IMG/VR virus record: IMGVR_UViG_3300033004_000001
Location: 1 to 64,000 of that record
Length of the DNA: 64,000 nt
Reading direction: 5' to 3' (one strand)
DNA from: a virus
Part shown: positions 6,239 through 58,025 of the stretch, piece by piece
How the letters are laid out: each line of letters begins with the position of its first letter
Numbering within the stretch: position 1 is the first letter of the stretch
The notes under the pieces: generated by a model
The model's database searches: none
What the model was told of the DNA's origin: nothing
The model's input: only the letters and a program-made list of their open reading frames with translations
Made by a program: the position numbers and the translations under genes

Positions 6239-6244
6239 AAAGGA

Positions 6245-41600: not shown

Positions 41601-44600
41601 AAGTATTTGATAAAGGATTGTATTATCATGATAGTAATTTTATTCATCAGAATAAAGCTGGTGAATGGAATATCAGAATTCCTAGAGAGTATAAAACTCC
41701 AGAAGCAATTAAAGACTATGTACAATCAGAAAGAGAAAAAGTAAGACAGAATAGAAAAGTTTTACTAACTGCAATCTTATCTGGAAAAGATGTTATTCTT
41801 CATAATATTAAAAGAATAAGTTCTATTCCAAACAATACTGGAAAGAATAGAAATATTGATGAGGTATTAAGAGAAATAGATCCTGATATAAATACTAATA
41901 CTATTGGATTAGGAATAGCTATTGGTAAAGGAAAAGAGAAAGGTATAATATGGACTGGGCATGGTAAAGATAATTTAAAAGGTACTGGAAGCCCTGGTCA
42001 TGTATTCTTTCAAACTAATTTAACTAGTGATGGAGAACCAGAAACTATTAAAGCTAATATATCTAAGTTATCTCAAGAACATGCTAATATATTATGGGAT
42101 GCTATAGTTACTAGATCTCGTAAAGGTAGTGGAGGTAATCAAGCTATACTACCAAATGAAGATGTACAAGGTCTTACAGTAGGAAATGTAATAAACTTAT
42201 TAACTGCTTTTGGTAGAGGTACTGATATTAATCATCCAGATAATGTTGGAAAGAGTCATCTTAAAGATAAACAATTATTTATAGATAATAAACTTAATTT
42301 ACATTATGGAGATAATATAGTAGATCTACATGATGTACTTAAAGGAACTATAGATAGAAATAAGGCTAGAGATAAGTTTGTTAATTGGGCTGTTAATAAT
42401 AAGAATTATAATGTTGCTAAAGAAATTCCAGAGTTAGGAATAGAACTTAATGAACCTATGACTAGAAAATTTAAGTTAGGCTCATGGGTTAGTGATGGAA
42501 CAGATACATATTCTGGTAGTCTAATTAAGAATGGATTTGTTCAAACTGATGTAGCTGAATTTGAAAAGTCTGGGTCGTTATTCCATGCTCCAGTTACTAT
42601 GGTTGATTTAAATGAATCAGGATTAGAAATTAAACCTACTCAACCAATTGTAAATAAAGCTAAGAGAGATGCTAAATTAGTTGACACTCAAGCTACTAAA
42701 CCATCTAATAAACCTAAGAATACTGGAACTAAAAAGATTGAAGCTTCAGAGAAACTTGATATTAAACCTAATGATTTAGAAAAGATTAGATCTTTACCAG
42801 TTGGAACTGATATATATATTACTATACAAGGAACTGCTGGGGAAGGATCAGAAGTTAGAAAAACAGAAGTTCCAAAGTTATTTGTATCGGTAGTAGATAA
42901 TAAAGGTAAAAAAGGATTTCAAATTCAGAATCCTAGAGCTAGAACTTATTTTGATATCTCTACGGCTGAATATATGGATGATCCAAATAAGATATTAGAA
43001 GTTGGAGATGAATCAGTTAAACAATTATCTTCATTAATATCTCAATATAGTAAAGAGGGATTTGATGTTAATATAGATACTTCAAAAGCTATTAAGAAAC
43101 CTATAGCTAAAGTTGAATCTAAAGTTGAAGAAGCTTATGAAGAAGCTAAAGAAAAATATGGAGAAGTATTAACTAAATTAGCAGAAGAAACTCCTCCTAC
43201 TGAAGAAGAACCAATTGATATTAAATTTACTGGAGATCCATTAAATGATGTAGAAACTGATCCTGAAGGAGCTCCATTTAAAATGGTTTATGATGAATCT
43301 CGTAAATATAAACCAGCTGAAATAGAAAAAGAAGTTAAATGGTTTCACGATAAGCTTGGTAAAGATATTCCAATTGAATTAAGAGAAGGATTAATTGATG
43401 TAGCTAAAGTTGGAGGTAAGAAAGCATTTGGACAATTAACTAGAGATGGAATTACTTTATCCAAAATAGCAGAAGAAGGGACTGTATATCATGAAGCATT
43501 TCATAGAGTATCCTTACTATATTTAGATCCTATTCAACGTGAAGAGATTTATAAAGAAGCTAGAAGTAAATATCCTGAACTTAGTAAATCTTCTACTGAT
43601 AGAAGAGTAGAAGAAAACTTAGCTGAGAAGTTTAAAGATTATATTCAAGATAAAGAGAAGAATCCTGATCATACTTTATTAGGTAAGATTGGAGAATTCT
43701 TTCAAAATTTATGGAATTTAGTTAAACAAATATTTACTGGACCAACTAGATTAACTAGTTTAGATATAGATAAACTATTTAGTTCTATTCAATCTGGTAA
43801 ATTTAAATCTTATAAACCGTTACAAGAGAACTTAGATAGATTAGGATTTGGTACATATGAATTAGAATATAAAGATAGACAGCTAGATAATGTTATCAAC
43901 TTTAAAATGATGAAGTCCTTAATTAGAGGATTATCTAGTATGATAATGGAGCCTGTTAGTTATAAACTATTTAAAGATGAAGCTAGAACTAAGTATTCTA
44001 GTATTGATGTAAAAGATTCTTTATCAGCTATTAACTTTGGTGATCTAAGGAAGAAGATTGAGAAATTAAGAGATGATTATGATAAACATAATAATAGAAA
44101 CAAGCAGGTAATAGACATAATTGAGAAAGGGCAACTAACCCCTGAATTAAGCTCACAGTTGAAAGCAGAGTATGGAGTGGACAATACTACCAGAGTTGCT
44201 ACAAATGCTCACCTTGGGCTTGAAAAGGGCCTTAGACTGGCTTCTTTATATCAGGAGGTACTAGACAACTATGACACTATCTTTAAAGATGAAATTCAGA
44301 ATTATATCTATAACGAACTAGGAGTTAAAAGAATTGATAATGGTGATGAAGACGAAAGAGTAACTAATGCTGAGACAGCAGCACATGATACAGAGGCATA
44401 TGAAAGGTCTGCTAAGGACAGTATTTCTAATGCTATTAAGTTTATGTTGCATGGGTTACATGCATCTGGAGATAAGAATCCTGATACTGGATTATGGGAG
44501 TTTGTACCATTTGATGAAATATGGAGTAGATTATCTAATGATTTACATAATAAGACTACCATAGAAGATATGATTAAGAAGCTTGATTCTTCAAATTATT

Positions 44601-47600
44601 TTCCATATGAACAATTAGCTAAGAAACTAAAAGCTGGTAGTGAGTTATTAAGAACTCAATTCTATACATCTCTTAGAGGACATAGATATAATTTTATTAA
44701 TGCTATGTTTAAAGAAGCTGCTGGTAGAAAGAAGGGAGAGTTACCAAACTTTTCAATGTATTTTACAGATGCAGATATTGAAAATTCTGCTAAGAATGCA
44801 GTTAGACTTTGGGGTGATGTATTTGCTATATCTGATTTAGTATCAGAAGGAGCAGTTAATACTAAGAAATTAGAGAAGATAATTAAAGACTTTGATAATA
44901 TTATTGAAGATTATAGAGAGGCTACTAATACTAAAGCTTTAATAAATACTGAAGATTATAAAGATAGATTAGTATCTATTCTTAAAGATATTCATATAGA
45001 TGTAGATAATAAGACTATTGATAATCTATTAGGTGATATTATAGATAGTGGTAAAGCTGGTACTGAAGAATTGGCATTAGGACAATTAATAGAAGATAGA
45101 TTATTTAATGGGTTATTTTCTACTAATAGTACTCTTTATAAATATGCTACTGGAGCTGATGTTAAATCTAGAGTTACATTAGAACCTAAGACATTATTTA
45201 GAAATGAGTCTATAGTTACTGATTTATCTAGAGCATTTGCTAAAACTAACTATGAAAATATTTCAGATAATATTTCTGGAGCAGATGGAGGTAATAAACA
45301 TGTATTTTCTAAGAATAGTTTAACTACAGATGTAATTCATTATTTAAAAACTGATGATGAATATTTAGATAAACTATTATCAGATGTATCTTCTAAATAT
45401 TCACATTATCTTAATCAAATAAAAAATAATCCTAGAGTTAGAAATAGACTTAAAGTTGGAACATTTAATGCTTTGATTAAAGATAATAGTTCTGATTCTG
45501 GTAGAGATTATCTAGATATATCTCCTACTGAAGATTTCTTATATAAACTCAATGCTACTAGATTTGGAACTGGGAATATGATTCTTCCAACAATTGCTGG
45601 TAGAAAAACTTATTATACTTTAAATGGATTTGATAGAATAGAACTTAAGTATCAGAAATTACCTTCTGGAGAACTTGTTATTCCAGATGATATAATTGAT
45701 ATATTTTATAAGTATGCTCAAGGAGAAGCTAATAAGATAGAGAAAGCTTGGCAGACTCTTAAGAAGTATAGTAAACTAGATGAAAAAGGTAACGTTATAA
45801 AAGGTACTACAGATTTTAAAAATCTTGTTGATAACTATCATTATGTTAAAGAAGGGAAGGTTAATAATATAGATAAAGGACAGGCATATAAGTATCAACA
45901 TATGTTTGAATCTTTTAATGAAAAAGGATTTGATATAAAGAATGAAGCAGATGTAAGAGATAGAATTAGAAAGATATTACAGAGTGATATAGATGCTACC
46001 ATTGAATATGCTAAAGATAATGATATAATAACTTCTACAACTAAAGATAAAAAGGAATTATTAGCTCCTAAGCTTCTTGATAGAGATATGGTATCTGAAT
46101 TAGCTAATAAGAGTTATGGAGGAGATATAGATGCAGCTACCAGGTCAATATTAGCTGATTATACTGTTAATACTAAGATATCATCTATTGAGACTATGAT
46201 GATGTTTATGGGTGATATATCTTTCTATTTTGATAAAAAGACTGAAGATCCAGCAGTTGATTATGCAAAACGTTTAGCTGTATTAATTTCTACTGGAACT
46301 AATTATAGAGAGACTATACCAGTTGATTTTGAAAATCCTACATATGGAGTTATTACATTAACTGAACAAAAATTAAATAGTAAATATCTAGATCTTATCA
46401 CAGATAAGTATAGGGAAATGTTACTTAAAAAGTATAATAAAGAACAAGCAGAAGAAATATTATCAAAACATCTTAAAGCATATGAAGATATTCAACCAAC
46501 TGATGCTATGGTACTTATTTCTCCTAATATGTATAAAGGAGAATCGCTTCGTTTAGGTGAATGGGGTGATAAAGAAGAAGCTGCTTTTAATATACTTAAT
46601 TCTGATAAAGAATTGTCTCCAGAAGAAGAAGCTATAGCATTAGGAATATCTGAGAAACCATTAAAAGATGTATATTTTGAGAGAGTTAGTTATGATATAG
46701 ATAATGATAATAAACTTCTAATTCCTACTTTTGATAAGATGGCTAAATTTACATTAAATAGACGTCTTGTAAAAGGAACTTATTTTGAAGACTTATTAGA
46801 TAGAATGGAAGCTGTTGGTAAGTACGAAGGTCTTGAGAAAGTATGTGAAGCTAAATTTACTACTGCAGTTAAAGTTGGAAATAGACAATCAACTGAATAC
46901 TTTAAGAATCCTAATACTAATGAACAATCAGTTACTGATTTAACAAATGTTCCAATACGTCAACAAAGTTTTAAATTCTTACGTCGTCAGGTTAATACGG
47001 ATCCTCATGAAGAACAAAAAGTTCTCTATGGAACTCAAGCTAAGAAGGTTACACTGCTTAATATATCAAATGATAATGATTATAATTTAGGTGGTAAATC
47101 TACAAAAGGGTTAGACATAAAGAGAAATATTACAAAATCTTTAACTACATTATCAGATAAAGAAACTAATAGACTTCTCGATAAACTTGGTGCAGATTTG
47201 AAGACTGGTAAGATGGATTCTGATCTATTCTACAATACATTATTAGCTGATGCTAAGACAGCTGGTATGTCATATCCAGTTCAAGAAGCATTACGTAGAC
47301 ATATTCCAATAGATTTACTTCCTGAAAAGAAATGGATATTGCAGAGATTTAGCGCAATGGCTAATAAACATGGAATAGATGTCCATTTTCCTGGACAACA
47401 GTTAATATTAATGTCTGGATATGGATTAGGATTAAAATCAATTCCTGATGAAACTAATAATTTAAGATTCTTATTTGATGAGAAAGGTAAACTTTCAGGA
47501 TCTGAAGTAAAATTACCAGTTCATGTATTTAAAGATGTTATTCCTAACTATGAGAATATGAGTTGGGAACAAAAAGTTGAATGGTTAAAAAAGAATCCTA

Positions 47601-50600
47601 ATATGTTGGAAGGAATTGTATCTTATATTCCTAACCAAGGACAGAACCATAATATGGTTGTTAAGGTAAAAGAGTTTCTACCTGAACAAATGGCAGATGT
47701 TATTATATTCCCTAATGAACTTACAACTTTAACTGGAAAAGACTTTGACGTAGATAAAGGATTCTTTGCTAGATACAATTATAAAACTAACAAAGATGGT
47801 AAAGTATCTAAAGTTCCATTTATGACAGATGATAATTCTACTCCTGATCAAAGATACGATAAGTTATTGAATGAAGAATTCTATAATAATAGGTACATAT
47901 TTACTAAGGAATTCTATAGAGATTTACAAGAAGCTAGAGATAACTTATATGGATCATTAGATTATAAGAATAAACTCTTAGGAGATGATAAAGTTAAGTT
48001 AGAAACTTTATTTGACTTAAGAAAGGAATTGTCTAAGAGATTTGATGAAGCATCTGAAAATGAAAAAGCATTCTATCATAAACAACTTTTAACTCTTGAT
48101 AGTAGAATTGATGATGTACTATACTATAATGATCTTATTAAAGAAAATGATGGATTACTAAAAGATTATAAGAGTGTTATAGAAGAAGCTTTAGTTAAGA
48201 ATAATATATTACCTTCTAGAGATGAATTTAAGAAACAACATGCTGAAGGAAAATTAGATTACTTTAAACAGAATACTAAACAAGCTATTCAAAATTATTA
48301 TTTAGATAATGTTAAATCTGTATTACTTAATGATAATCATTTCTTATCTACTAGCGCTCCTCTCGGAGCTGTTACAGGACGACTAAAGAAGTTAGAAGAG
48401 AAAGTAACTAAAGCAGAAGAAGCTGGTAAAAAGAGATCTAGAGATTTTACTGGACCAGTTGCTCAAGCAAATTTAAAATATCAATTTGGTAGTGGTGGAC
48501 AAGGAAAAGCTGTTTTCTCTTTAAGTAATTCTCATCATGCTATGACTCAATATGCTGATGTATCTTTTAGAAAGGATATAGGAGTTGGAGTTAAAAATGA
48601 TGATGGAACGTATAAGAATAGTTTACATGAACAATATGGTAATGTTGAAAGAGACGGAGAAAGAGTATTAATATCTGACTGGGGATCAGCTTTAATTGAT
48701 GCTCACGTTGATATAGAAAAAGATCCATTTATCATTAAACTTAATGTAGTTAAGCCTACTTATAATGTAACTTCATTATTAATTAGAACTGGAGTTGGAG
48801 AGAAGACATTTGAATTCTTATCTCAACCAATTCTTAAAGATTTCTCTAAAGCGTCTATTAATGATGATAGTGAAATTACTACAGAACAAGATAAACCTAT
48901 AGCTGTAGTTAGAAATAAATGGAATGATTTATATGAAAAATCTCTTAAATCTGAATTTAAAGATGTACAAGAGTCTCGTAGAGAAGATGTTAAGATTAGA
49001 ACTGAACTTGCTGAATACAAACCATTAGATGAAGATTTATTAAAGTTATTACAAACTCCTGTTAGAGATTCTAGATGGTATTTTAAACAAATTAAAATAT
49101 TAGATTTATTTAATACTTTAGATAAAGGACCAGCTAAAGAACTAAATAGATTAGTAATGGCTTCTAGAGTTGATACTAAGAAGTATGGTAATAATATGAC
49201 TGAAATAAAGATGTATTTAGATGCTGTCAGAGACTTACATAAAGAAAATATCTTTACTAATCTTGATAAGTTATTACCATATGATTCAGATACAAATACT
49301 GCTAAGGATGTAGAAGATGGAACATTCAACTCTGCATACTTACGTAATGGTCCTCTTCTTGTAAGTAAGTTAATGTCAGATAGAACTATAACTGCTACTC
49401 CTACATTCAATAGTATTATAGATAGACTTGTAACTCTTACTAAAAGTAAATACGCTAGGAATAAAGAAGGATTATTAAATCATATGGCAGATGAAGTTAG
49501 TGCTGCATATATGTCTAGGTTCTTTACTGATAAGAATTTATTAAACTTAAATAGTAAGAAAGTTGGTTCTATAATGGATAGAGTTACTAAGTTCTTAGAA
49601 ACTGTTAACACTAATCCTAATTATAAAGATAAATTAAAAGATAACATTTTAATACAATCTCTTATTAAAGGTAGAGATAGTATGGATGGAATGACATTCT
49701 TTGGAATTCCAACTATAAAATCAAATGATAATTTTACTAAAGATGATTTAATGTTTGCTTGGCAAGACTTATTACAAAGTGATGATGTAACTTTAAGAAA
49801 CTTTGGTAAAGAGTTATTCGTATATTCATTTTATACATCAGGATTAAAGAGAGGATTATTTTCAATATTTCATTATGTTCCACCAGCATTATTAGATGAA
49901 TTAGATATTAATTACGTTGATCCAGAAACTAATGAAAAGAAATCCACTATATTAAGTTATTCAGATTATACTGATGGATTACTAGCACAGGATGTAATGA
50001 GTAATACTATATATGAAGGAATAGATAAAGAAGTATTTAAAAATAATTGGCATAATCCTAAATATGTACCTCAATTAAATCCAATTGATGTTCAGAATAT
50101 AATTCCTAGAAAATCTGGAGATCCTGCTGTTGTTACAATATATGGTAGATATACTATTCCTAAGTTACGAATAGGTAATAATATATATGATCAACCTATT
50201 TTTAAGCCTTATATTAATTATATAGTTGACGAAAAGACTTCACATTTAATGGAATATATTGGATATCATGATATTGATAAAACTCCAGTATATAAAGTTG
50301 TTGGTAAGATGGGATATTATAATAAAGGGAGAGTTATTAAGGAATATGGATTAGAAGAATCAACTCTTGAAAGAAATAGAATTAAAGAAATTCCAGATGA
50401 AACAATGCTTCCTTTTATAGAGAAAGCTAAGATGTATGAATCATTTATCTATATACCACCAGAAAATAGAGATATAGCTGAGAATAAAAGATCTGAAGAA
50501 GAAGTTGAGAATAATGATGCTAAAGATAAAGTTACTCCTACTACTGGAGAAGGAACTACTGTTGAAACAGTAAAACTTAAAATGATCACTCCTGATAAGG

Positions 50601-50806
50601 AGAAAGAAGATTTGAAAAGAGAGATATCTGAATCTGAGATTTATTCAGATAAACAGAAAGATGAATTACATAAACTAATAGATGACAAAGATGTTAAATC
50701 TCCAGAGGATATTAATGATTTGATAAAAATAATTTGTGATAAATATGGATCTCCAAGAGTTAAAATTACTCCAGGAGCTAAGAATAGATTTTCAATTAAT
50801 GATTAA
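38663..50806 (+). CDS. Giant virion-associated RNA polymerase polyprotein (double-psi beta-barrel) with zincin-like domain
   Basis: 4047 aa; DFDVDK at 47741-47758, AVKVG, GTQ..K, HVD..KDP; HEAFH at 43490; N-terminal Gly/Ala-rich membrane-like segments. Confidence 0.9.
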   Translation: MPNNKQQAQQEPTPSWALQRNRPTYNTVTGEFSPVSSLLDKDEHERIKKIPFTGGNAATYLGDAGESVYDKNLSRQNIDLKDEFRGQNQPAMAKLGAGLAKALITTGTTAADGIIGTAVGLGNMAVEQKGSAFWDNPFTNWMNDINNSAEKWFPSYYTEQEKNASFIGQLGYANFWGDKFLKNLGFVAGMVLDGVITGGASMEALGGKAIAAKLPEAIANAALKGSEALATASKAGDMIGLTSEIINNAKQLNRINKISQGVSSILSAQGMSRFMALDDANRFYTENYQKLQQQMQDGKIGLEDYNLKMASLKKASEGYGNADFLANVVVLGLSSGIQFKNLFTKGFTPSETIAKGIVGSVEAGYTYERPVIQHAAKIAKNILAESGMFQEQYAASVATSDFYQKKFDGKKQDKIDDIYHSIYKGLVDAYGSREGWNQGLLGSVIGLIGVPTISSKGLDWGGGIRGDIKEVREQNAANQEAARRLNEVLKSDDFKNNYQSLIRNLSLEDEKNEAAAKGDKFEVLNKQHDQFINDALQFIRAGRYEDFQNNIKFIRNSNAEEVKQLFKTKTNEDVTRELYGLKPKALEGHVFEKYTADEITDKLNENANKMLSNAKTIKDLYDAYSVKYPGISEDAKELLIYTASKLEDINERLNDINKESINKFGLDINNYIKLKKDGNIDLSSVAEGMEEYQKHYDQVIKEQELSGRFNPVDVENFERNFQDFPKLIITKADFIDLYRQNITAKGPEKVQETINKADEERKTVEGTAVIEPMPDDLVTYTNTDGETNVYKINQIDENDNVTLTPTDTEGVPTGEADIIVTKNDIKLYQKEGKGKEELSKTEPVNESETTTVPNKEFYPEHGRGLRDASVSISHSHWDGKLGKTVIRNEDFDKYISSPKNDITKDKVQFRIDTGTEDEYKSSLWRLHKKIKAKLDKGETFTEKEISDIVNSRRTTEDRDEYNSIVDTLPIKIDYITKDGEVFDKGLYYHDSNFIHQNKAGEWNIRIPREYKTPEAIKDYVQSEREKVRQNRKVLLTAILSGKDVILHNIKRISSIPNNTGKNRNIDEVLREIDPDINTNTIGLGIAIGKGKEKGIIWTGHGKDNLKGTGSPGHVFFQTNLTSDGEPETIKANISKLSQEHANILWDAIVTRSRKGSGGNQAILPNEDVQGLTVGNVINLLTAFGRGTDINHPDNVGKSHLKDKQLFIDNKLNLHYGDNIVDLHDVLKGTIDRNKARDKFVNWAVNNKNYNVAKEIPELGIELNEPMTRKFKLGSWVSDGTDTYSGSLIKNGFVQTDVAEFEKSGSLFHAPVTMVDLNESGLEIKPTQPIVNKAKRDAKLVDTQATKPSNKPKNTGTKKIEASEKLDIKPNDLEKIRSLPVGTDIYITIQGTAGEGSEVRKTEVPKLFVSVVDNKGKKGFQIQNPRARTYFDISTAEYMDDPNKILEVGDESVKQLSSLISQYSKEGFDVNIDTSKAIKKPIAKVESKVEEAYEEAKEKYGEVLTKLAEETPPTEEEPIDIKFTGDPLNDVETDPEGAPFKMVYDESRKYKPAEIEKEVKWFHDKLGKDIPIELREGLIDVAKVGGKKAFGQLTRDGITLSKIAEEGTVYHEAFHRVSLLYLDPIQREEIYKEARSKYPELSKSSTDRRVEENLAEKFKDYIQDKEKNPDHTLLGKIGEFFQNLWNLVKQIFTGPTRLTSLDIDKLFSSIQSGKFKSYKPLQENLDRLGFGTYELEYKDRQLDNVINFKMMKSLIRGLSSMIMEPVSYKLFKDEARTKYSSIDVKDSLSAINFGDLRKKIEKLRDDYDKHNNRNKQVIDIIEKGQLTPELSSQLKAEYGVDNTTRVATNAHLGLEKGLRLASLYQEVLDNYDTIFKDEIQNYIYNELGVKRIDNGDEDERVTNAETAAHDTEAYERSAKDSISNAIKFMLHGLHASGDKNPDTGLWEFVPFDEIWSRLSNDLHNKTTIEDMIKKLDSSNYFPYEQLAKKLKAGSELLRTQFYTSLRGHRYNFINAMFKEAAGRKKGELPNFSMYFTDADIENSAKNAVRLWGDVFAISDLVSEGAVNTKKLEKIIKDFDNIIEDYREATNTKALINTEDYKDRLVSILKDIHIDVDNKTIDNLLGDIIDSGKAGTEELALGQLIEDRLFNGLFSTNSTLYKYATGADVKSRVTLEPKTLFRNESIVTDLSRAFAKTNYENISDNISGADGGNKHVFSKNSLTTDVIHYLKTDDEYLDKLLSDVSSKYSHYLNQIKNNPRVRNRLKVGTFNALIKDNSSDSGRDYLDISPTEDFLYKLNATRFGTGNMILPTIAGRKTYYTLNGFDRIELKYQKLPSGELVIPDDIIDIFYKYAQGEANKIEKAWQTLKKYSKLDEKGNVIKGTTDFKNLVDNYHYVKEGKVNNIDKGQAYKYQHMFESFNEKGFDIKNEADVRDRIRKILQSDIDATIEYAKDNDIITSTTKDKKELLAPKLLDRDMVSELANKSYGGDIDAATRSILADYTVNTKISSIETMMMFMGDISFYFDKKTEDPAVDYAKRLAVLISTGTNYRETIPVDFENPTYGVITLTEQKLNSKYLDLITDKYREMLLKKYNKEQAEEILSKHLKAYEDIQPTDAMVLISPNMYKGESLRLGEWGDKEEAAFNILNSDKELSPEEEAIALGISEKPLKDVYFERVSYDIDNDNKLLIPTFDKMAKFTLNRRLVKGTYFEDLLDRMEAVGKYEGLEKVCEAKFTTAVKVGNRQSTEYFKNPNTNEQSVTDLTNVPIRQQSFKFLRRQVNTDPHEEQKVLYGTQAKKVTLLNISNDNDYNLGGKSTKGLDIKRNITKSLTTLSDKETNRLLDKLGADLKTGKMDSDLFYNTLLADAKTAGMSYPVQEALRRHIPIDLLPEKKWILQRFSAMANKHGIDVHFPGQQLILMSGYGLGLKSIPDETNNLRFLFDEKGKLSGSEVKLPVHVFKDVIPNYENMSWEQKVEWLKKNPNMLEGIVSYIPNQGQNHNMVVKVKEFLPEQMADVIIFPNELTTLTGKDFDVDKGFFARYNYKTNKDGKVSKVPFMTDDNSTPDQRYDKLLNEEFYNNRYIFTKEFYRDLQEARDNLYGSLDYKNKLLGDDKVKLETLFDLRKELSKRFDEASENEKAFYHKQLLTLDSRIDDVLYYNDLIKENDGLLKDYKSVIEEALVKNNILPSRDEFKKQHAEGKLDYFKQNTKQAIQNYYLDNVKSVLLNDNHFLSTSAPLGAVTGRLKKLEEKVTKAEEAGKKRSRDFTGPVAQANLKYQFGSGGQGKAVFSLSNSHHAMTQYADVSFRKDIGVGVKNDDGTYKNSLHEQYGNVERDGERVLISDWGSALIDAHVDIEKDPFIIKLNVVKPTYNVTSLLIRTGVGEKTFEFLSQPILKDFSKASINDDSEITTEQDKPIAVVRNKWNDLYEKSLKSEFKDVQESRREDVKIRTELAEYKPLDEDLLKLLQTPVRDSRWYFKQIKILDLFNTLDKGPAKELNRLVMASRVDTKKYGNNMTEIKMYLDAVRDLHKENIFTNLDKLLPYDSDTNTAKDVEDGTFNSAYLRNGPLLVSKLMSDRTITATPTFNSIIDRLVTLTKSKYARNKEGLLNHMADEVSAAYMSRFFTDKNLLNLNSKKVGSIMDRVTKFLETVNTNPNYKDKLKDNILIQSLIKGRDSMDGMTFFGIPTIKSNDNFTKDDLMFAWQDLLQSDDVTLRNFGKELFVYSFYTSGLKRGLFSIFHYVPPALLDELDINYVDPETNEKKSTILSYSDYTDGLLAQDVMSNTIYEGIDKEVFKNNWHNPKYVPQLNPIDVQNIIPRKSGDPAVVTIYGRYTIPKLRIGNNIYDQPIFKPYINYIVDEKTSHLMEYIGYHDIDKTPVYKVVGKMGYYNKGRVIKEYGLEESTLERNRIKEIPDETMLPFIEKAKMYESFIYIPPENRDIAENKRSEEEVENNDAKDKVTPTTGEGTTVETVKLKMITPDKEKEDLKREISESEIYSDKQKDELHKLIDDKDVKSPEDINDLIKIICDKYGSPRVKITPGAKNRFSIND

Positions 50807-50820
50807 TTATATGTACTAAG

Positions 50821-51192
50821 ATGAAAGATAATAAGAATTACGGAATGGAAATAATAGTAGATCTTCATGATTGTAATATTAAGAGATTTACTAGAAAAAG
50901 TCTAGATGAGTTTTTCTTAAAGATATGTGAATTAAGCGATATGACTGCAGTGGGTAAGCCCAAATACTGGCACGAGTTATCTAATATACCACACCTTAAG
51001 GGTTACTCAGGAATACAGTTTATAAAGACAAGTAATATACTAATACATACATTAGATATTACAAGAGATGCTTATATAAATTTTTTTAGTTGTAAAGAGT
51101 TTGATGTTGATCAAATTCTCAGCTTTATTACAGAACATTTTCAAGCAGGACGAGTATATCATAAACTAATATATAGAGGAGAAAATAGATAA
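50821..51192 (+). CDS. Pyruvoyl-dependent decarboxylase proenzyme, AdoMetDC/SpeD class 1b fold, divergent
   Basis: G..IIVDL..C, GYS63, T70-S71, IH76T, FSC91K: spacing of processing residues conserved. Confidence 0.85.
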   Translation: MKDNKNYGMEIIVDLHDCNIKRFTRKSLDEFFLKICELSDMTAVGKPKYWHELSNIPHLKGYSGIQFIKTSNILIHTLDITRDAYINFFSCKEFDVDQILSFITEHFQAGRVYHKLIYRGENR

Positions 51193-51581
51193 TGTATAAG
51201 ATAGAATCTGGAGTATCTAAAGATAAAATGAGATACTTTATAGAACAAGGAGTGTCGACATGGGGTGATTATTTTATAAAAGATGGAGTTCTAAATTTTC
51301 AAATAGTTGAACATAAAAATGATATATATTCAAGACTTACTTTAATACACGAATTAATTGAACAAATGTTATTAGAAGCTAAAGGAGTTAATATAGATGA
51401 TATTGATAAATTTGACTTTGAATTTGAAAAAGATCCAGAAAGAACATCTAAATATTTTGAATCTGGAGATGATCCTAATTGTCCTTATAAAGCAGAACAT
51501 GATTATGCAGACTCTGTATTAAAAGAAATGTGTACTAAAATGAATATTAATTTTGAAGATTATATAAATGACGAATTATAA
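51192..51581 (+). CDS. Hypothetical metal-binding protein (HExxE...H)
   Basis: GDY, LIHELIE, D.FD, GDDP.CPY..EH..A; coupled to both neighbours. Confidence 0.6.
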   Translation: MYKIESGVSKDKMRYFIEQGVSTWGDYFIKDGVLNFQIVEHKNDIYSRLTLIHELIEQMLLEAKGVNIDDIDKFDFEFEKDPERTSKYFESGDDPNCPYKAEHDYADSVLKEMCTKMNINFEDYINDEL

Positions 51582-52830
51582 GACTAAAGCAGTTATGGTA
51601 TATGACTACGGAACATTTGTAGGATTATCAGAAAGACTTGCTAGAGATTTCGGAAAAGTATATTATTACTCTCCTTGGAAATCTTCATTTCCTCAAACTA
51701 AGAATTCGTATTTAGGACTAGGGTTAAAGAATGTTGAAAGAGTTAATGAATTTTTTGATTATATTCAAGATGTTGATTTAATAGTATTTCCTGATGTAAT
51801 GGATGGAGATTTACAATTACATCTTGAATCATTAGGATGTTCTGTATTTGGATGTAGAAAAGGAGAAGAACTAGAATTGAATAGATTAGCTACTAAAAGA
51901 TTACTAAAGAAGTTAGGATTACCAGTTGGAGAATATGAAGTAGTTAAAGGATTAACTAATCTTAGAAAGTATTTAAAAGAACATAAAAATATATGGGTTA
52001 AAGTAGATATATTTAGAGGAGATTTTGAAACTTTCAAGTCAGTTAATTATGATTTTATAGAACCTAGATTATATGAAATTGAGGTTAATTTAGGACCAAT
52101 TAAAGAATTAGTTAATTTTATATGTGAAGAAGATCTTCCAGATAAAGTAGAATTAGGATTTGATGGATACTGTATTGATGGTAAATATCCTACTAAAACA
52201 TTATCAGGAATTGAAGTTAAAGATTTAGGGTATATAGGGATATTTAAAGACTATAATAAATTACCTGATCCCATACTAGAGGTTAATGAAAAGCTTTCCC
52301 CTATACTAAAAAATTATGGATATAGAGGATTATTTAGTACTGAAGTTAGAATTGGTAAAGATCATAAAGGATACTTGATAGATCCTTGTATGAGAGCTGG
52401 CTCACCACCTAATGAAGTGTATCAAGAGATGTATACTAATTTATCAGAGATTATGTATGAAGGTGCTAGAGGCAATATAGTAGATCCAATTGTTGAACAT
52501 AAATTTGCAGTTGAAGTATTAATACATTCTACTTATGCTGAAACTCATTGGTTATCTGTTCAAGTTCCAGAGAAGTATTACAATAATGTTAAGTTTAGAA
52601 ATTGTACTAGACTTGATAAAGTACATTACATAATTCCACAGTATATAGGATTACCAGAAATAGGTGCTGTTACAGTTGTAGGAGATAGTATAGAAGCATG
52701 TACTGAACAAATTGATAAAATAGCAGATGAAGTTAAAGGATTTTATATTGATATTCCATCTCATGCATTAGATAAAGCTAATGAAGAAATAGATAAGTTG
52801 AAAGAATTAGGATATGATTTATTTAAATAA
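51568..52830 (+). CDS. ATP-grasp ligase, PurD (GAR synthetase)-like but divergent
   Basis: VFG....ELE.NR...K..L.K.GLP..EY...L..YL....WVK, EE.L..VE.G, C-terminal IDPCMRAGSPP (cf. EFNxRFGDP). Confidence 0.82.
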   Translation: MTNYKTKAVMVYDYGTFVGLSERLARDFGKVYYYSPWKSSFPQTKNSYLGLGLKNVERVNEFFDYIQDVDLIVFPDVMDGDLQLHLESLGCSVFGCRKGEELELNRLATKRLLKKLGLPVGEYEVVKGLTNLRKYLKEHKNIWVKVDIFRGDFETFKSVNYDFIEPRLYEIEVNLGPIKELVNFICEEDLPDKVELGFDGYCIDGKYPTKTLSGIEVKDLGYIGIFKDYNKLPDPILEVNEKLSPILKNYGYRGLFSTEVRIGKDHKGYLIDPCMRAGSPPNEVYQEMYTNLSEIMYEGARGNIVDPIVEHKFAVEVLIHSTYAETHWLSVQVPEKYYNNVKFRNCTRLDKVHYIIPQYIGLPEIGAVTVVGDSIEACTEQIDKIADEVKGFYIDIPSHALDKANEEIDKLKELGYDLFK

Positions 52831-52832
52831 TT

Positions 52833-55800
52833 ATGATTAATTGTCCGAATAAGAATACAGATGCATGGAGGTCATTAAACTCTTTAGTTCCAGATTTATC
52901 TAATCATATCTGGCATAAATTAGAGGGACAAATCTCTGATAATGGACATCCTATGGAGGATGTAGATAGATTTAATAAGTTATTAGAAGATAATGATAAT
53001 GATTATAAACAAACTTATTTACAATTTCTTGGAGTAGAAGATGCCAAAATAGATTATCAATTTAGATCTGTTAATAATATAATAAAGAATATTATTAAGA
53101 TTGATAATTGGTCTAAACAAATTAAGAATCAAAATCAATTATTTGATAAGATACAGAAGGATCTTGGTATACCTAAAGAACAGATTGAACTTATTAAACA
53201 ATCTGAAGGAAAGGATATTAATGAAAAGTTATTAGATTTCATTAGTAAATATAGTTATACTATTGAAGTTAATACTGCTACAGATAATAAAAAATCTTCA
53301 GATGAATTTATCTTTAATGGAGATAACTATGGTTATGAAATAGTTGGTGATGATTATGGCACAGGAGCAGAAGAAACAGTTCCCACAAGAAATGGAATAG
53401 AGATTTCTCAGCAAGAATTTGATAAAGCTAAAGCAGAATATAGAAGAGATACCAATACTCCTTCTCAATACTATTCAAATCTAACAGTTCCAGGAGGTAC
53501 TAACTATACAGAAAATGAAATACGTACACCTGATATTACACCCAGTATTAAAGGACATGCTCAGTTTAGTACAGATCAAGGTATAGGTTGGTTTAGAAGC
53601 GATGATAAAAAGAGAGATTTAACTGAAGAACAGATTAAAGAAGAATGGCCTTTAATTGAAGGGAGAAGAGTTTATATAGGTAAAAAATATAAGGATAGTA
53701 AAACTCGTCGTATATTAGAAATACAATCTGATTTATTTCAGAAAGGTAGAGATGAAGAGGATTTAACTGAATATAAATATACTCGTTCCGATGAAGGAGA
53801 AATTAATTTTGGAGATGAAGATATTTATAGAGCAGAAAGAATGTTTTATGCTGGAAATGAAGAATATGAGAAAGGATTATCAACAAGATTTAGAGAAAAA
53901 GATGTAAAGAAAAATCAATTCTTACAGCTTCTAAACAAAGATAACAATTGGGTTACATTCTTTATTAAATCTATTATTCAAGATAGTGCTAAGAAAGGAT
54001 ATGAGAAAGTATTATTTCCTAAAGGTGAAACTGCTGCTAAGGTTGAAGGACATGAAACTTTAGCAAATGAACTTACTAAAATAAATAATGAATTAGAACA
54101 ACTTCAAAAAATAGATTTATCCGAAAAAGGTATAGTAGAAGGAACTGGAATTAAGAATAAAATTGCTAACTTAGAACAACGTAAATCTGAACTTAAATCT
54201 CAAGGTATAGAAAAACTTAAACCTATTGAAGCATTTTATGAAATTAAAGTACAGAATATATTAAAGAAGATAGACCCTAATATTAAAACTATTACAGATG
54301 AATTTGGTAATCAATGGTTAGAGTACCAATTAACAGATAAAGATTTAAATAATATAGAATTTCAGAAAGCAAATGGAGAATCTTATATATTTAATAAGAA
54401 ATTAAACGATCAAATTAAACAGATATTACAAAAATTATATCCAGAAGTTAAATTAAATTATACAACTAATTTAGAAGGAATTAGAGGACAATATCAAGCT
54501 GGAAAAATATTAATAAACTCATTATCACAAAATACAGATACTCTTCCTCATGAATATGCTCATCATTATATTAAGATGTTTATTAAAAGTGATATTGTTA
54601 AACAAGGAATTAAATTATTTGGATCAGAGGAGAAACTAGTTCAATCTATTGGAGAACAATCCATTAGAGCATTAAAATGGTATCAGAAATTATATGATTG
54701 GTTAAAAGGATTATTTAGTTCTAAACAATCATTATTAAATAACTTAACAAATAGTTTCTTAGAATATAATAGATTATTAGATAAATCTGCTATTTCTACC
54801 GAAAGAATGTATCAAAAAATTACTAAAGAAGATGTTACTGGAGATACTAAGAAACCATTAAATGATGTATTATCATTACCAGAAGTACCTCTTGAATCTA
54901 AATTTACTAAGTTAGATAAGATGTCTGAAATTAAAGAGAAAGCTATAAAACGATTAGAATTTAAGAGAGAACTAAATATAAAAAGAAAAAAACCTAGTTT
55001 TGATCCTGAAGCAGAAAAAGTATTTATTGAAGAAATAAAAAAATTAGAAGCATCTCAAGCTATGCTTAGATTTACTAGAAGAGCATCAAAAACTGTAGAT
55101 GGTATATATTCTCAATGGTTAAAGATAAAAGAAAAAATTAAATTAATAGATGAAGGTAAGCTAAATATAGATAAAAGTGTAGTATTAAATCCTCAAATAT
55201 TATCTCAATGGGCTGACTATTTATCAGCTTTTGATTCACTTGAAGAATTTAGAAATGCCCTTGTAGCAGATGGGTCATTATATAAGGATGAAGTTCTAAA
55301 GAAGATGTTAAATGATACTATTGAAAAAAAGAATGCAATTGAGAAATTATACGATGTAGAGGGATATGATATGATGGCTGGGTTTCTTGAACCTCATAAT
55401 GATCAGATACGTAAAGATTTTGAAATTCTAGCTAGTAAGAGTTATAAGAAATTAACACCTGAACAGAAATCTCAAATATCAGAAGAAAGATACATTCAAG
55501 TTCAAAAAGAACTTAAAGAAACCAAACTTAATGAACAAACTTTTTTAATGTTACGTAATGAATTACAGAAAGCTACAAGTGATATAGGATTAGCTAGACG
55601 TTGGGTTGGAAATATTTTGAATTCTTCTAATCCAGTTATTGCAGCAGTTGGACAGATAATATCCTTTGCTGAAATGAAAGTTCATGGTAGGAAGATAGAA
55701 ATTAGGAATAGAATGATGCCTATTTTAGAGAAACTAGAAAAGTTAAAAAAAGGATATAAAGATATTAGAGATATATATGATCAAATTTTAGAACCTAAAA

Positions 55801-58025
55801 CTAATCGTTTAATAAGTAAATGGGGTAGTGAATTCTTAGATGCTTATGATAAAGTTAAAAATGATGCTAAGCAAAATGATAAGTTAACTGATGATGAAAG
55901 AGGTAATATCATTAAGAAATGGCTTGGAGAAAATACTGATTTTGATGGACTTCAATTTCGTAAAGATAAATGGAGTTATATAGATTCTCTTGAAAAGAAT
56001 GGAGAAATATCTTCTGAAGATGTAAGAGCTTTAGAAGTAAATGAAGCTGATAAATATTGGTCTAAGTCTCCTCATGCATTATTTGAAGATGGAAGAATAT
56101 CAGAAAATACAGCTAATTTAATAGCAGGATGGCAATCTGAGCATTCATGGGATTATAGAACACTTAAAGATGAGTGGCTTAAGAAAAATCCTCAATGGGA
56201 TAAATTTCAAGCTTTACGTAAATCTAATCCGAACGATCCCATAGTTGAATTTTATGACTTTATCAAAGAATATGAAGATGAATTTAATTCATATCTTCCA
56301 GCTAGTATGAGATTAAGAAATGGACAATTACCAGGAGTAATGAAAACTTCTGATGAAAGATTAAAAGCTGGAGAATCATTTCTTAATATAACTAAAGCTA
56401 AATTACAAAGAACTTTTGATTTCGTAGCTACTGATGATATAACTAGAGGTAATGAACCGTTAATCGATGAAAGAGGAAATAAAAGATATTTTATTCCAAT
56501 GTATTATACTAGCAAGTTGGATGCTAAAGATCAATCATTTGATTTAGCTACAGCATACTTTAAATGGTTTTCAACAGCCGCTGATTATGAATCTAAAAAT
56601 TCTATCTATCCAGAAATGGAAATGATTAGACATTTTATAGAGACTAGAAAACCAGATATTCAAACTAAAGGAAAAAAAGAATTAAAATTTTATAATAGAT
56701 TATCAGAACAGTTTAATGATTGGTTTGAAATGGTATTCTATGGAGTTAAACAAAAAGATGAAGGCAAATTTAAAATATTTGGATTAACTATTGATACAGC
56801 TAAATTTTTAGATTTTATTAGTAAATCTACTGCTTATAATATTTTATCATTAAACTTCAGAGCTGGTATATCAAATCCTTTAATTGGAGAAGTTTTAAAT
56901 ACTGGTGAGGCAATAGCTAAGCAACACATGGATCTTAAATCTTTTCATAAAGCTCATGCTTATTATTTTAAAAATCTTCCTGGAATGTTAGGAGATGTTG
57001 GTAAAAGAAAGCCATCAAATATAGTTAATTTGTTAAGTGAAAAGTTCAAAGTAGATCCTGATCAGATGAACAATAGATTCAGAGATGACACAAGATTGAA
57101 AGAATTAGCAAAGAGTAGTAGTTTGTTTTTTATGATGACATCTGGAGATACTTATTTAAATAATACTTTATTTCTAGGAATGTTAGATCATAAGATAGCT
57201 TATGATAAAGATGGGAATAAATTAGGATCTATGTTAGATCAATATTCTAAAGATAAACAAGGTAATTTAGTTCTTAATAAAGAAGTTAGTTTAGATAAAT
57301 CTAATTGGAATGAAACTGATCAACTTAAATTTGGTAATAAAGTACAATATGTAATCGAAGGAGTTCAAGGTAACTATACACAACTTGGTAAGACTGCTGT
57401 ACAACGATTTGCGTTAGGTAGAATGGCTATAATGTTTAGAAAGTTTGTAGTTCCTGGGATAGAGAAAAGATATGATAAAAAACAATTTACTCAAAGATTA
57501 GGTGACTATACTGAAGGATATTATAGAACTACTGGAAGATTTTTAGCTAATTTATATAAAGAATTTAAAACATATCAATTTCATGTATTAGGATTAGAAT
57601 GGGATAAATTAGATCATATAGAAAAAGCCAATATTGTTAGAACTATATCAGAATTAGGATTTATGCTTACAGCTTTAGTTATAGGTGGAGCAATGACTAG
57701 AAAAGATAGAGATGATAGTGATGATTCATGGTTCTATAATTTCTCTGCATATCAATTATTGAGACTAAAGACAGAATTATTATTCTATACTAATCCTGCA
57801 GAAGCAATGCAGATATTAAGATCTCCAATGGCTACTATGTCTTTATTTGAAACTACTATGAAGATATTTCACCAAATGTTACATCCTACAGATAGATATA
57901 CTGCTGGAGTTCCTGAATGGAAAGGACATCTTAAAATGGAAAAATTACTATATGATTTACTTCCAGTATTTAGAGCTAATTATCAACTTAGAGATATTAA
58001 AACTCAAGTTAGTTTTATGAAATAA
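52833..58025 (+). CDS. Large virion cargo / polyvalent protein with zincin-like protease domain
   Basis: N-terminal CPN.N, EIQSD domain, LPHEYAHH at ~54549, C-terminal GNY...G....FRK..EGYY region of crAss post-RNAP proteins. Confidence 0.78.
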   Translation: MINCPNKNTDAWRSLNSLVPDLSNHIWHKLEGQISDNGHPMEDVDRFNKLLEDNDNDYKQTYLQFLGVEDAKIDYQFRSVNNIIKNIIKIDNWSKQIKNQNQLFDKIQKDLGIPKEQIELIKQSEGKDINEKLLDFISKYSYTIEVNTATDNKKSSDEFIFNGDNYGYEIVGDDYGTGAEETVPTRNGIEISQQEFDKAKAEYRRDTNTPSQYYSNLTVPGGTNYTENEIRTPDITPSIKGHAQFSTDQGIGWFRSDDKKRDLTEEQIKEEWPLIEGRRVYIGKKYKDSKTRRILEIQSDLFQKGRDEEDLTEYKYTRSDEGEINFGDEDIYRAERMFYAGNEEYEKGLSTRFREKDVKKNQFLQLLNKDNNWVTFFIKSIIQDSAKKGYEKVLFPKGETAAKVEGHETLANELTKINNELEQLQKIDLSEKGIVEGTGIKNKIANLEQRKSELKSQGIEKLKPIEAFYEIKVQNILKKIDPNIKTITDEFGNQWLEYQLTDKDLNNIEFQKANGESYIFNKKLNDQIKQILQKLYPEVKLNYTTNLEGIRGQYQAGKILINSLSQNTDTLPHEYAHHYIKMFIKSDIVKQGIKLFGSEEKLVQSIGEQSIRALKWYQKLYDWLKGLFSSKQSLLNNLTNSFLEYNRLLDKSAISTERMYQKITKEDVTGDTKKPLNDVLSLPEVPLESKFTKLDKMSEIKEKAIKRLEFKRELNIKRKKPSFDPEAEKVFIEEIKKLEASQAMLRFTRRASKTVDGIYSQWLKIKEKIKLIDEGKLNIDKSVVLNPQILSQWADYLSAFDSLEEFRNALVADGSLYKDEVLKKMLNDTIEKKNAIEKLYDVEGYDMMAGFLEPHNDQIRKDFEILASKSYKKLTPEQKSQISEERYIQVQKELKETKLNEQTFLMLRNELQKATSDIGLARRWVGNILNSSNPVIAAVGQIISFAEMKVHGRKIEIRNRMMPILEKLEKLKKGYKDIRDIYDQILEPKTNRLISKWGSEFLDAYDKVKNDAKQNDKLTDDERGNIIKKWLGENTDFDGLQFRKDKWSYIDSLEKNGEISSEDVRALEVNEADKYWSKSPHALFEDGRISENTANLIAGWQSEHSWDYRTLKDEWLKKNPQWDKFQALRKSNPNDPIVEFYDFIKEYEDEFNSYLPASMRLRNGQLPGVMKTSDERLKAGESFLNITKAKLQRTFDFVATDDITRGNEPLIDERGNKRYFIPMYYTSKLDAKDQSFDLATAYFKWFSTAADYESKNSIYPEMEMIRHFIETRKPDIQTKGKKELKFYNRLSEQFNDWFEMVFYGVKQKDEGKFKIFGLTIDTAKFLDFISKSTAYNILSLNFRAGISNPLIGEVLNTGEAIAKQHMDLKSFHKAHAYYFKNLPGMLGDVGKRKPSNIVNLLSEKFKVDPDQMNNRFRDDTRLKELAKSSSLFFMMTSGDTYLNNTLFLGMLDHKIAYDKDGNKLGSMLDQYSKDKQGNLVLNKEVSLDKSNWNETDQLKFGNKVQYVIEGVQGNYTQLGKTAVQRFALGRMAIMFRKFVVPGIEKRYDKKQFTQRLGDYTEGYYRTTGRFLANLYKEFKTYQFHVLGLEWDKLDHIEKANIVRTISELGFMLTALVIGGAMTRKDRDDSDDSWFYNFSAYQLLRLKTELLFYTNPAEAMQILRSPMATMSLFETTMKIFHQMLHPTDRYTAGVPEWKGHLKMEKLLYDLLPVFRANYQLRDIKTQVSFMK

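Follow-up and report, generated by a model that had tools for sequence, protein, structure and literature searches.

Small pyruvoyl decarboxylases of the class 1b SpeD type depend on three residues for self-processing and catalysis, S63, H68 and C83 in the numbering of the Thermotoga maritima S-adenosylmethionine decarboxylase (AdoMetDC), and one proline is fully conserved in true AdoMetDCs, according to PMC10407285. Among phage homologues, the SpeD of phiN3 is a proven AdoMetDC (PMC9992855), and others have proved to act on arginine or ornithine (PMC9992855, PMC10407285). A combination of amino acid decarboxylation with ATP-driven amide formation is described for the fungal E-64 gene cluster, whose pathway type yields agmatine and putrescine amides (PMC12568646), and agmatine has been shown to serve as a substrate of ATP-grasp ligases (PMC13725569). 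Here we analysed a three-gene cassette at positions 50,821 to 52,830 of a 64,000-nucleotide (nt) stretch of viral DNA, referred to below as the window (positions 1 to 64,000 of IMG/VR record IMGVR_UViG_3300033004_000001). An earlier note, made from the letters of the window alone, had assigned the three genes to a pyruvoyl decarboxylase, an HExxE...H protein and a PurD-like ATP-grasp ligase.

The trio proved to be one version of a phage-wide module centred on the ligase. We propose that the module caps amines, that is, that arginine is converted to agmatine and agmatine is joined to a carboxylate in an ATP-dependent amide, while the HExxE protein, where present, would act as a hydrolase. We assign this proposal a probability of roughly 45%. 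The observations that are new here are the exchange of the decarboxylase, the swap of the whole cassette in a sister phage, a census seeded with the HExxE protein, and a set of very acidic micro-open-reading-frames beside the ligase. No description of the module was found in the literature searched; the earlier note knew of none in Crassvirales.

Results

The cassette and its borders

All three genes are encoded on the plus strand. Gene 1 (P0001, 50821..51192) encodes a 123-amino-acid (aa) predicted pyruvoyl proenzyme of the AdoMetDC fold, class 1b SpeD-like (DC). Gene 2 (P0002, 51192..51581) encodes HE, a putative small metalloprotein of 129 aa with an HExxE..D..H pattern, which appears to be an optional accessory. 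Gene 3 (P0003, 51568..52830) encodes GRASP, a predicted PurD-fold ATP-grasp carboxylate-amine ligase of 420 aa and the core of the module. The DC stop and the HE start are joined in a TAATG at 51190-51194, and HE and GRASP overlap by 14 nt (51568-51581). Upstream, 14 nt separate DC from the stop of a 4,047-aa open reading frame (ORF; 38663..50806, plus strand), and downstream only 2 nt lie between the GRASP stop and the start, at 52833, of a 1,730-aa ORF (52833..58025, plus strand). The coupling described in the earlier note was exact in its ORF coordinates. Residues 2179-3073 of the 4,047-aa ORF matched the phi14:2 gp66 RNA polymerase (PDB 6vr4) with an E value of 5.3e-40. This match identifies it as a crAss-type virion RNA polymerase polyprotein and agrees with the position of the cassette, which is preceded by the virion RNA polymerase gene and followed by another giant gene; the PHROGs gave no match, whereas the PDB sequence search did recognise the protein. 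For the 1,730-aa ORF no match was obtained in PHROG or PDB. It is presumed to be a virion or ejected protein and forms the right border of the exchangeable cassette.

Exchange of the decarboxylase

The strongest available indication of the role of gene 1 is an exchange of the decarboxylase itself. In a sister phage (contig L114, in fuller form L161), the first 50 nt correspond to the end of the RNA polymerase gene with 89.6% nt identity, and the gene after the cassette is 87-88% identical in aa sequence to the 1,730-aa ORF of the window. Enclosed by these borders is a cassette of different order and content: HE, GRASP, an LPG_synthase_C/DUF2156-type protein and a PvlArgDC. Its GRASP is only 41% identical to P0003, and it holds no AdoMetDC-like gene. 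The PvlArgDC (PF01862) scored 98 bits (cut-off 22.7) and reads Y-S-S-I-L-P at the cleavage motif. The LPG_synthase_C/DUF2156 protein (300 aa, L114:1667-2566, the same in L161; 59.8 bits, cut-off 27.5) is aminoacyl-tRNA-transferase-like, corresponds to the MprF domain and occurred on one contig only. A second lineage (L017/L167/L168) has a ligase whose stop is overlapped by a PvlArgDC of 153.7 bits. In a FastTree phylogeny of 103 ligases with local supports, the ligase of this lineage falls into a clade of ten (support 0.96), eight of which have an AdoMetDC-like partner.

With PvlArgDC and AdoMetDC-like proteins paired with the same ligase, two unrelated pyruvoyl decarboxylase folds thus serve one ligase family and replace each other beside it, in one case at the studied locus itself. 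PvlArgDC is absent from the window, and its fold is unrelated to that of DC; both are cofactor-free pyruvoyl enzymes, and amino acid decarboxylation via a pyruvoyl cofactor is the one property common to the two folds. To our knowledge, arginine is the only substrate of characterised PvlArgDC-fold enzymes. Together with the exchange, this specificity points to agmatine as the likely amine. The sister phage also reveals a hot spot of cassette exchange in crAss-like phages, bordered by the virion RNA polymerase gene and the giant gene that follows it.

The giant gene at the right border differs between the two phages as well. The sister version (L161:3076-6513) is 1,145 aa long; the 87-88% identity extends over residues 1-68 and 636-1730 of the window protein, and residues 69-635, approximately, are missing in L161, so a large internal domain seems to have been gained or lost.

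The PurD-fold ligase

Structure prediction placed GRASP close to PurD. The AlphaFold2 (AF2) model (predicted local distance difference test score, pLDDT, 93.9) has the four-domain N-A-B-C ATP-grasp fold over its full length. The top ten Foldseek matches were all PurD, that is, glycinamide ribonucleotide (GAR) synthetase, with E values of 1.5e-19 to 3e-17 and template modelling (TM) scores of 0.65-0.74; PurD structures include 2yw2, 1vkz and 1gso, of which 2yw2 matched best (E 1.5e-19, TM 0.74), and biotin carboxylases followed after the PurD entries. A GRASP profile searched against PDB sequences likewise returned PurD only. The Lys, Glu and Arg residues of ATP-grasp enzymes are kept: K145, R150, E154, E195, D199, K218, E259, R261 and R276 are invariant, and D272 is present in 31 of 32 sequences. 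Unlike PurD itself, GRASP is only 12-17% identical to PurD proteins and matched no Pfam family (GARS_N, GARS_A or GARS_C) even at E 1, although some divergent relatives do reach GARS_A or GARS_C.

The differences concentrate on the substrate side. In PurD, a GGREHA motif of the N domain (residue 9 in E. coli PurD) binds the ribose-phosphate substrate. This motif is missing in P0003, which reads Y-D-Y-G-T-F there, and a conserved D-x-G-x-F stands in its place across the family. D70 and D76 of the N domain are invariant and D13 is present in 30 of 32 sequences; these acidic residues would suit a cationic substrate. The stretch D272-x-C274-x-R276-x-G-S-P-P-x-E aligned to the PurD motif E-x-N-x-R-x-G-D-P-E, with an hhalign probability of only 28.6%. 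From the loss of GGREHA, the D-x-G-x-F motif and the invariant D70 and D76, the modelled protein is best described as an ATP-grasp ligase that derives from PurD but has an altered pocket on the amine side.

More than 713 homologues of GRASP were found, most of them without a name; the few that have one go under hypothetical, PurD or HicB-like. Nearly all members are viral: only 10 ligase loci, all in metagenome-assembled genomes (MAGs) of varied groups, turned up in 185,579 species genomes. Unlike PurD, the phage proteins are encoded within blocks of virion genes, beside decarboxylase partners. Within the annotated phage collection, the ligase occurred in three Aquificae viruses only. Two of these ligases (BK013347.1 10023-11213 and BK013345.1 3581-4804; L001 and L002) are labelled 'phosphoribosylaminoimidazole carboxylase' and 'phosphoribosylamine-glycine ligase', labels which probably over-interpret the fold.

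An ordinary PurD that boosts purine synthesis, accompanied by an ordinary AdoMetDC, would account for the PurD proteins being the closest matches in both fold and sequence, and for homologues being called phosphoribosylamine-glycine ligase in some sources. We consider it very improbable indeed and rejected the PurD half, since the GARS Pfam models and GGREHA are absent at such low identity and the family is almost wholly viral. As for the AdoMetDC half, the phage has no spermidine synthase of its own, although a host enzyme could still serve.

Several further observations concern the ligase family. A single-protein pattern scan for GRASP returned nothing, and the long N-terminal extensions of some ligases had no Pfam match. 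On a 163-kb contig binned with a Bacteroides MAG, the ligase (L085:5968-7260) is split over two ORFs, 5968-6282 and 6304-7260, for which a frameshift, gene breakage or the recoding of a stop codon on a crAss-like contig could account. The ESM Atlas contains a viral cluster of 516-aa ligase homologues with a TM score of 0.97 to the Atlas model of P0003. PF26092 (T4_Y16D) is annotated on 48% of its members, a label that was not reproduced with the Pfam copy used here; it suggests an extra domain common to a phage T4 protein of unknown function.

The decarboxylase

DC matched Pfam AdoMet_dc (PF02675) with E 5e-15 and 56.2 bits (cut-off 25), as well as PHROG 3125. Like the SpeD enzymes of class 1b, including the arginine (SpeDA) and ornithine (SpeDC) decarboxylases described in PMC9992855 and PMC10407285, it belongs to PF02675, is about 120 aa long and keeps the Ser, His and Cys: S71, H76 and C91 align with S63, H68 and C83 of the T. 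maritima enzyme (1tlu/1vr7). The self-cleavage serine is predicted to be S71 in the motif K-T-S71-N. S71 and C91 were invariant in the family alignment of ligase-linked DC homologues (34 of 34), and 24 of the 34 matched PF02675 at E <= 1e-3; the alignment was too variable for a pattern scan. In contrast to class 1b SpeD, DC reads K-T-S-N and H-T-L-D where the T. maritima enzyme reads S-E-S-H and H-T-W-P-E, and its gene is invariably linked to one for a PurD-like ligase, an association that PMC9992855 and PMC10407285 do not mention. In the annotated phage collection P0001 matched SpeD genes only, that of phiN3 among them. The AdoMetDC fold named in the earlier note was thereby upheld by PF02675. 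A true AdoMetDC, in contrast, DC probably is not, being interchangeable with an arginine decarboxylase of the PvlArgDC fold.

A simpler view of gene 1 is plain polyamine metabolism, in which DC, as a decarboxylase of arginine, ornithine or AdoMet, raises host polyamines for replication or DNA packaging and the ligase is functionally separate or makes a storage conjugate resembling glutathionylspermidine. Phage SpeD homologues with AdoMetDC, arginine decarboxylase or ornithine decarboxylase activity are well documented, the nearest annotated phage matches of P0001 are SpeD genes with the phiN3 AdoMetDC among them (PMC9992855), and in many phages the cassette lies beside packaging genes. Set against this, 39 of 64 loci have DC in overlap or direct contact with the ligase, and the decarboxylase fold has been swapped while the ligase was kept, which argues for one pathway. 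The SpeD homologues matched in the annotated collection are not beside such a ligase, because that collection has the ligase in the three Aquificae viruses only. The phage genome is complete (92,612 bp, direct terminal repeats), and in it neither spermidine synthase (PF01564; control genomes were positive) nor arginase/agmatinase nor agmatine deiminase was found, so no enzyme of its own would take agmatine to putrescine. We therefore rejected an ordinary spermidine pathway, which together with the loss of the PurD signatures agrees with the earlier note, where neither purine nor polyamine synthesis was held to explain the cassette. Plain polyamine metabolism as a whole is distinctly unlikely in our judgement, and the missing enzymes support the proposed capping of the amine.

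The HExxE protein

HE matched no Pfam or PHROG family, and no HE was found in the annotated phage collection. Its motif comprises H53-E54-x-x-E57, D75, E90-x-G92, P98-Y99 and H103. Among 147 family representatives, H53, E57, D75 and H103 were conserved in 100%, E54 in 97%, and the E-P-G and P-Y motifs in 85-99%. A profile of 17 homologues, an alignment too variable for a pattern scan, recovered 1828 clusters at 50% identity, nearly all of them stand-alone proteins of 120-135 aa. None of the long matches was an HE-DC or HE-GRASP fusion; one was a tandem HE-HE protein (P0125, 257 aa), and another carried HE at the C-terminus of an unrelated Cys-rich N-terminal part (P0232, 602 aa).

In the AF2 model (pLDDT 92.5), a three-strand sheet is followed by the H-E-x-x-E helix. 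Foldseek gave no match below E 0.38. Exhaustive structure alignment gave weak matches, with YbeY best (Z 5.3) and PprI, selecase, SPRTN, Wss1 and CapP next (Z 4.1-4.7) together with a few unrelated folds; the zincins below YbeY stood among rows of Z 3.2-4.8. ESM Atlas matches were Peptidase_M78/SprT-like clusters (TM 0.48-0.53). The model thus shares with the minimal zincins (YbeY, selecase/minigluzincins, SprT/SPRTN, Wss1, IrrE/PprI) the three-strand sheet and the H-E-x-x- helix, and later helices carry further ligands as in zincins. On the other hand, the zincin HExxH with its third ligand is missing and HExxE with the invariant D75 and H103 is found instead, the Z scores reach only 4-5, and no sequence family matches. 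A minimal zincin-like fold is probable for HE on the basis of this model. Pfam, motif conservation and the AF2/Foldseek comparisons together corroborated the family assignments that the earlier note had made for the three genes.

Distribution of the module

A ligase-seeded, alignment-based scan of IMG/VR gave 233 loci, of which 80 were inspected and 64 had enough flanking sequence; genes of these related loci were taken from naive ORF calls and iterated hidden Markov models. The ligase was accompanied by DC only in 30 of the 64 loci, by DC and HE in 9 and by HE only in 7, and in 18 by neither. In the 39 loci with DC, it was located directly upstream of the ligase on the same strand, mostly with an overlap of 1-17 nt. 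HE was beside the module in 16 of 64 loci in variable position, and the trio was seen in four orders (HE-DC-GRASP, DC-HE-GRASP, DC-GRASP-HE and GRASP-HE-DC). The closest IMG/VR relatives of this phage (L004/L005; ligase 66% and RNA polymerase 60% identical) have DC and ligase and lack HE. Recurrence in other phages had been named beforehand as a test, and both the DC-ligase pair and the full trio recur in many.

The genomic setting varied. On crAss-sized contigs the ligase was found between giant ORFs, on podophage contigs of 40-60 kb the module separates the large terminase from a P22-type portal, and in the three Aquificae hot-spring viruses the ligase is flanked by portal and terminase, with neighbours that showed no BLAST similarity to DC or HE. 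The module is not confined to the setting of the earlier note, Crassvirales and an operon of RNA polymerase cargo. In the 40-60 kb podophage group, a protein of about 400 aa with a weak, sub-threshold match to Wzy_C (O-antigen ligase) separates the terminase from DC and the ligase (L069:526-1710 and eight similar loci, cluster c9).

When HE was used as the seed, 35 of 66 loci contained the ligase, almost invariably in direct contact with HE. A further four loci at least had a relative in the vicinity that is more PurD-like and matches Pfam GARS_A or GARS_C, which links HE to a wider superfamily of phage PurD-like ligases. PurD-like ATP-grasp genes near HE with GARS_A or GARS_C matches, some above cut-off, are located at L109:1013-2344, L132:3602-4927 and L158:3786-5087. 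About 40% of the HE-seeded loci had no ligase nearby; in two of these (L100, L101) HE adjoins a portal-sized ORF (671-732 aa), and elsewhere unrelated genes. With HE optional, in any position and often found away from the ligase, the fixed three-step pathway of the earlier note had to be abandoned.

The acid partner

Near the ligase in about 30 of the 80 inspected loci we found very acidic ORFs of 31-80 aa (30-50% Asp and Glu, almost no Lys or Arg), located 0-2.4 kb upstream and in one case just after it. Examples are L009:5892-6005, L017:5883-6014, L020:5529-5648, L042:7235-7360, L063:5886-5999, L083:5640-5768, L057:4953-5129 and L051:1482-1694; about 20 more loci belong to the set. The frequency of these micro-ORFs was raised about tenfold in the vicinity of the ligase (Poisson P 1.7e-10); 15 of them directly abut DC or GRASP. 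Many share the motif PDEWRDY, the more distant ones belong to the same family, and none matched Pfam. They may be substrate or carrier peptides.

The micro-ORFs bear on a rival explanation, in which virion or ejected proteins or small acidic peptides are amidated with the DC amine, at side chains or the C-terminus, so that acidic groups become cationic, for example for DNA condensation or ejection, and HE is a processing peptidase. Several ATP-grasp enzymes, among them RimK, LysX and TTL, act on acidic protein tails, and the LysW/LysX-type and RimK-type systems on acidic peptide tails; the small acidic ORFs that abut the ligase in many related loci resemble these systems. The module always resides in morphogenesis regions, either among giant internal proteins or by terminase and portal, and the fold of HE is peptidase-like. 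In the phage studied here, though, there is neither an acidic micro-ORF or other acidic carrier ORF near the cassette nor a strongly acidic tail on the flanking proteins. GRASP is PurD-like, not RimK- or LysX-like, and the four-domain PurD fold is one used for small substrates. The aminoacyl-tRNA-transferase-like enzyme of the sister cassette is typical of small-molecule or lipid chemistry. On balance, amidation of peptides or proteins is an unlikely explanation, though the leading alternative for the acid partner is the carboxylate of a peptide or protein, favoured by the constant placement among virion genes and by the acidic ORFs next to ligase and DC. Within the proposed capping of agmatine, our best guess is a free amino acid or small acid, yielding a pseudopeptide of the aminoacyl-agmatine type; the PurD fold and the transferase-like enzyme of the sister cassette favour it, as do the pathways, such as E-64, in which a dedicated decarboxylase and ATP-grasp or amide-bond ligases produce agmatine or putrescine amides, and the ATP-grasp ligases that take agmatine.

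A third kind of target, DNA or tRNA, is hinted at by some observations. Here, agmatine or a related amine would be placed on a carboxylated base, or attached in another way to DNA or tRNA, during packaging as a protection against restriction. The cassette would be expressed late and lies beside packaging genes, and an agmatine-based modification, agmatidine, is known from archaeal tRNA. Other phage PvlArgDC genes are located beside an SGGKDS PP-loop-type protein of 390-410 aa (L162:2839-4005, L164:2839-4005, L165:5223-6461 and L166:4545-5780), which by eye resembles PAPS-reductase/IbrA and may represent another agmatine-using system. Against such a target, no base-carboxylating, 5-hydroxymethyl-pyrimidine or 7-deazaguanine genes turned up, though no systematic search for them was made. 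The PurD fold has no nucleic-acid binding domain, and we know of no ATP-grasp enzyme in a DNA hypermodification pathway. We regard nucleic-acid modification as quite improbable.

Genome context and expression

Upstream of the RNA polymerase gene, the genome encodes terminase, portal, major head protein and virion structural proteins. The GC content of the cassette (25-28.5%, compared with 29.4% for the 64-kb window) showed no compositional anomaly, and a megablast search of the region returned nothing. No terminator-like site was detected on the plus strand between 50000 and 53500, and promoter-like matches in that region were rarer than in shuffled sequence. Transcription of the cassette genes would come by read-through out of the virion RNA polymerase gene, which would place their expression with that of the late virion genes.

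Discussion

We infer the functions of DC, HE and GRASP as follows. Judged by its family and residues, DC would cleave itself at S71 to form the pyruvoyl cofactor. It would then act as a decarboxylase on a basic amino acid. The conversion of L-arginine to agmatine is the most likely reaction, that of ornithine to putrescine comes second, and S-adenosylmethionine is an unlikely substrate. GRASP, as its fold and ATP-grasp residues suggest, would use ATP to convert a carboxylate into an acyl phosphate, and attack by the amine would give the amide. HE may act as an optional metal-dependent hydrolase that either frees the acid substrate or trims or releases the product; of the three assignments this is the weakest.

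The E-64 pathway and the agmatine-accepting ATP-grasp ligases provide a precedent for an amide pathway of decarboxylase and ATP-grasp ligase. In the E-64 cluster, Arg, Orn or Lys is decarboxylated and the amine caps an ATP-activated acid, which is the same logic. The fungal decarboxylase depends on pyridoxal phosphate, though, and the ATP-grasp enzyme joins the acid to an amino acid, whereas a separate adenylating enzyme adds the amine (PMC12568646). The hosts are fungi, and the likeness to the phage cassette lies in this logic.

Several findings weigh against the capping of agmatine by the cassette. PvlArgDC was the partner in two lineages only. The 18 ligase loci with neither DC nor HE mean that the ligase may use a host amine there, or does something else, and the HE genes without a ligase nearby stand apart from any such pathway. 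In DC, the serine of the cleavage site is preceded by Thr in place of Glu, the HTWPE proline is missing, and most ligase-linked homologues have Asp at the position of His68, where the window protein keeps H76; in view of these departures, self-cleavage is an assumption. In the ligase, Cys replaces the Asn of the PurD E-x-N Mg site in 27 of 32 sequences. Finally, the acidic micro-ORFs fit a peptide substrate better than a free acid.

A broader statement, to which we incline less than to the capping of agmatine itself, can be made tentatively. Many uncultured phages, the crAss-like phage studied here among them, might encode a compact pathway, independent of the ribosome and of non-ribosomal peptide synthetases, for amides capped with agmatine or putrescine during virion assembly. 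Its product might be a pseudopeptide in free form, acting for instance as an inhibitor or a signal; alternatively, it might be a new polyamine-type modification carried by virion proteins, ejected proteins or the acidic micro-peptides. Recombination at a hot spot flanked by conserved virion genes would swap the decarboxylase, the hydrolase and the additional transferase as cassettes.

The names 'phosphoribosylamine-glycine ligase', 'phosphoribosylaminoimidazole carboxylase' and 'AdoMet decarboxylase' in phage annotations should accordingly not be taken to mean auxiliary metabolism of purines or spermidine. The exchange of pyruvoyl decarboxylases offers a concrete and cheap hypothesis, arginine to agmatine to ATP-dependent ligation. 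If it is true, a large share of uncultured tailed phages, among them crAss-like phages as well as others binned with MAGs from at least seven bacterial groups, would make an amine amide late in infection with a cofactor-free set of enzymes, a chemistry that is not part of any described phage function.

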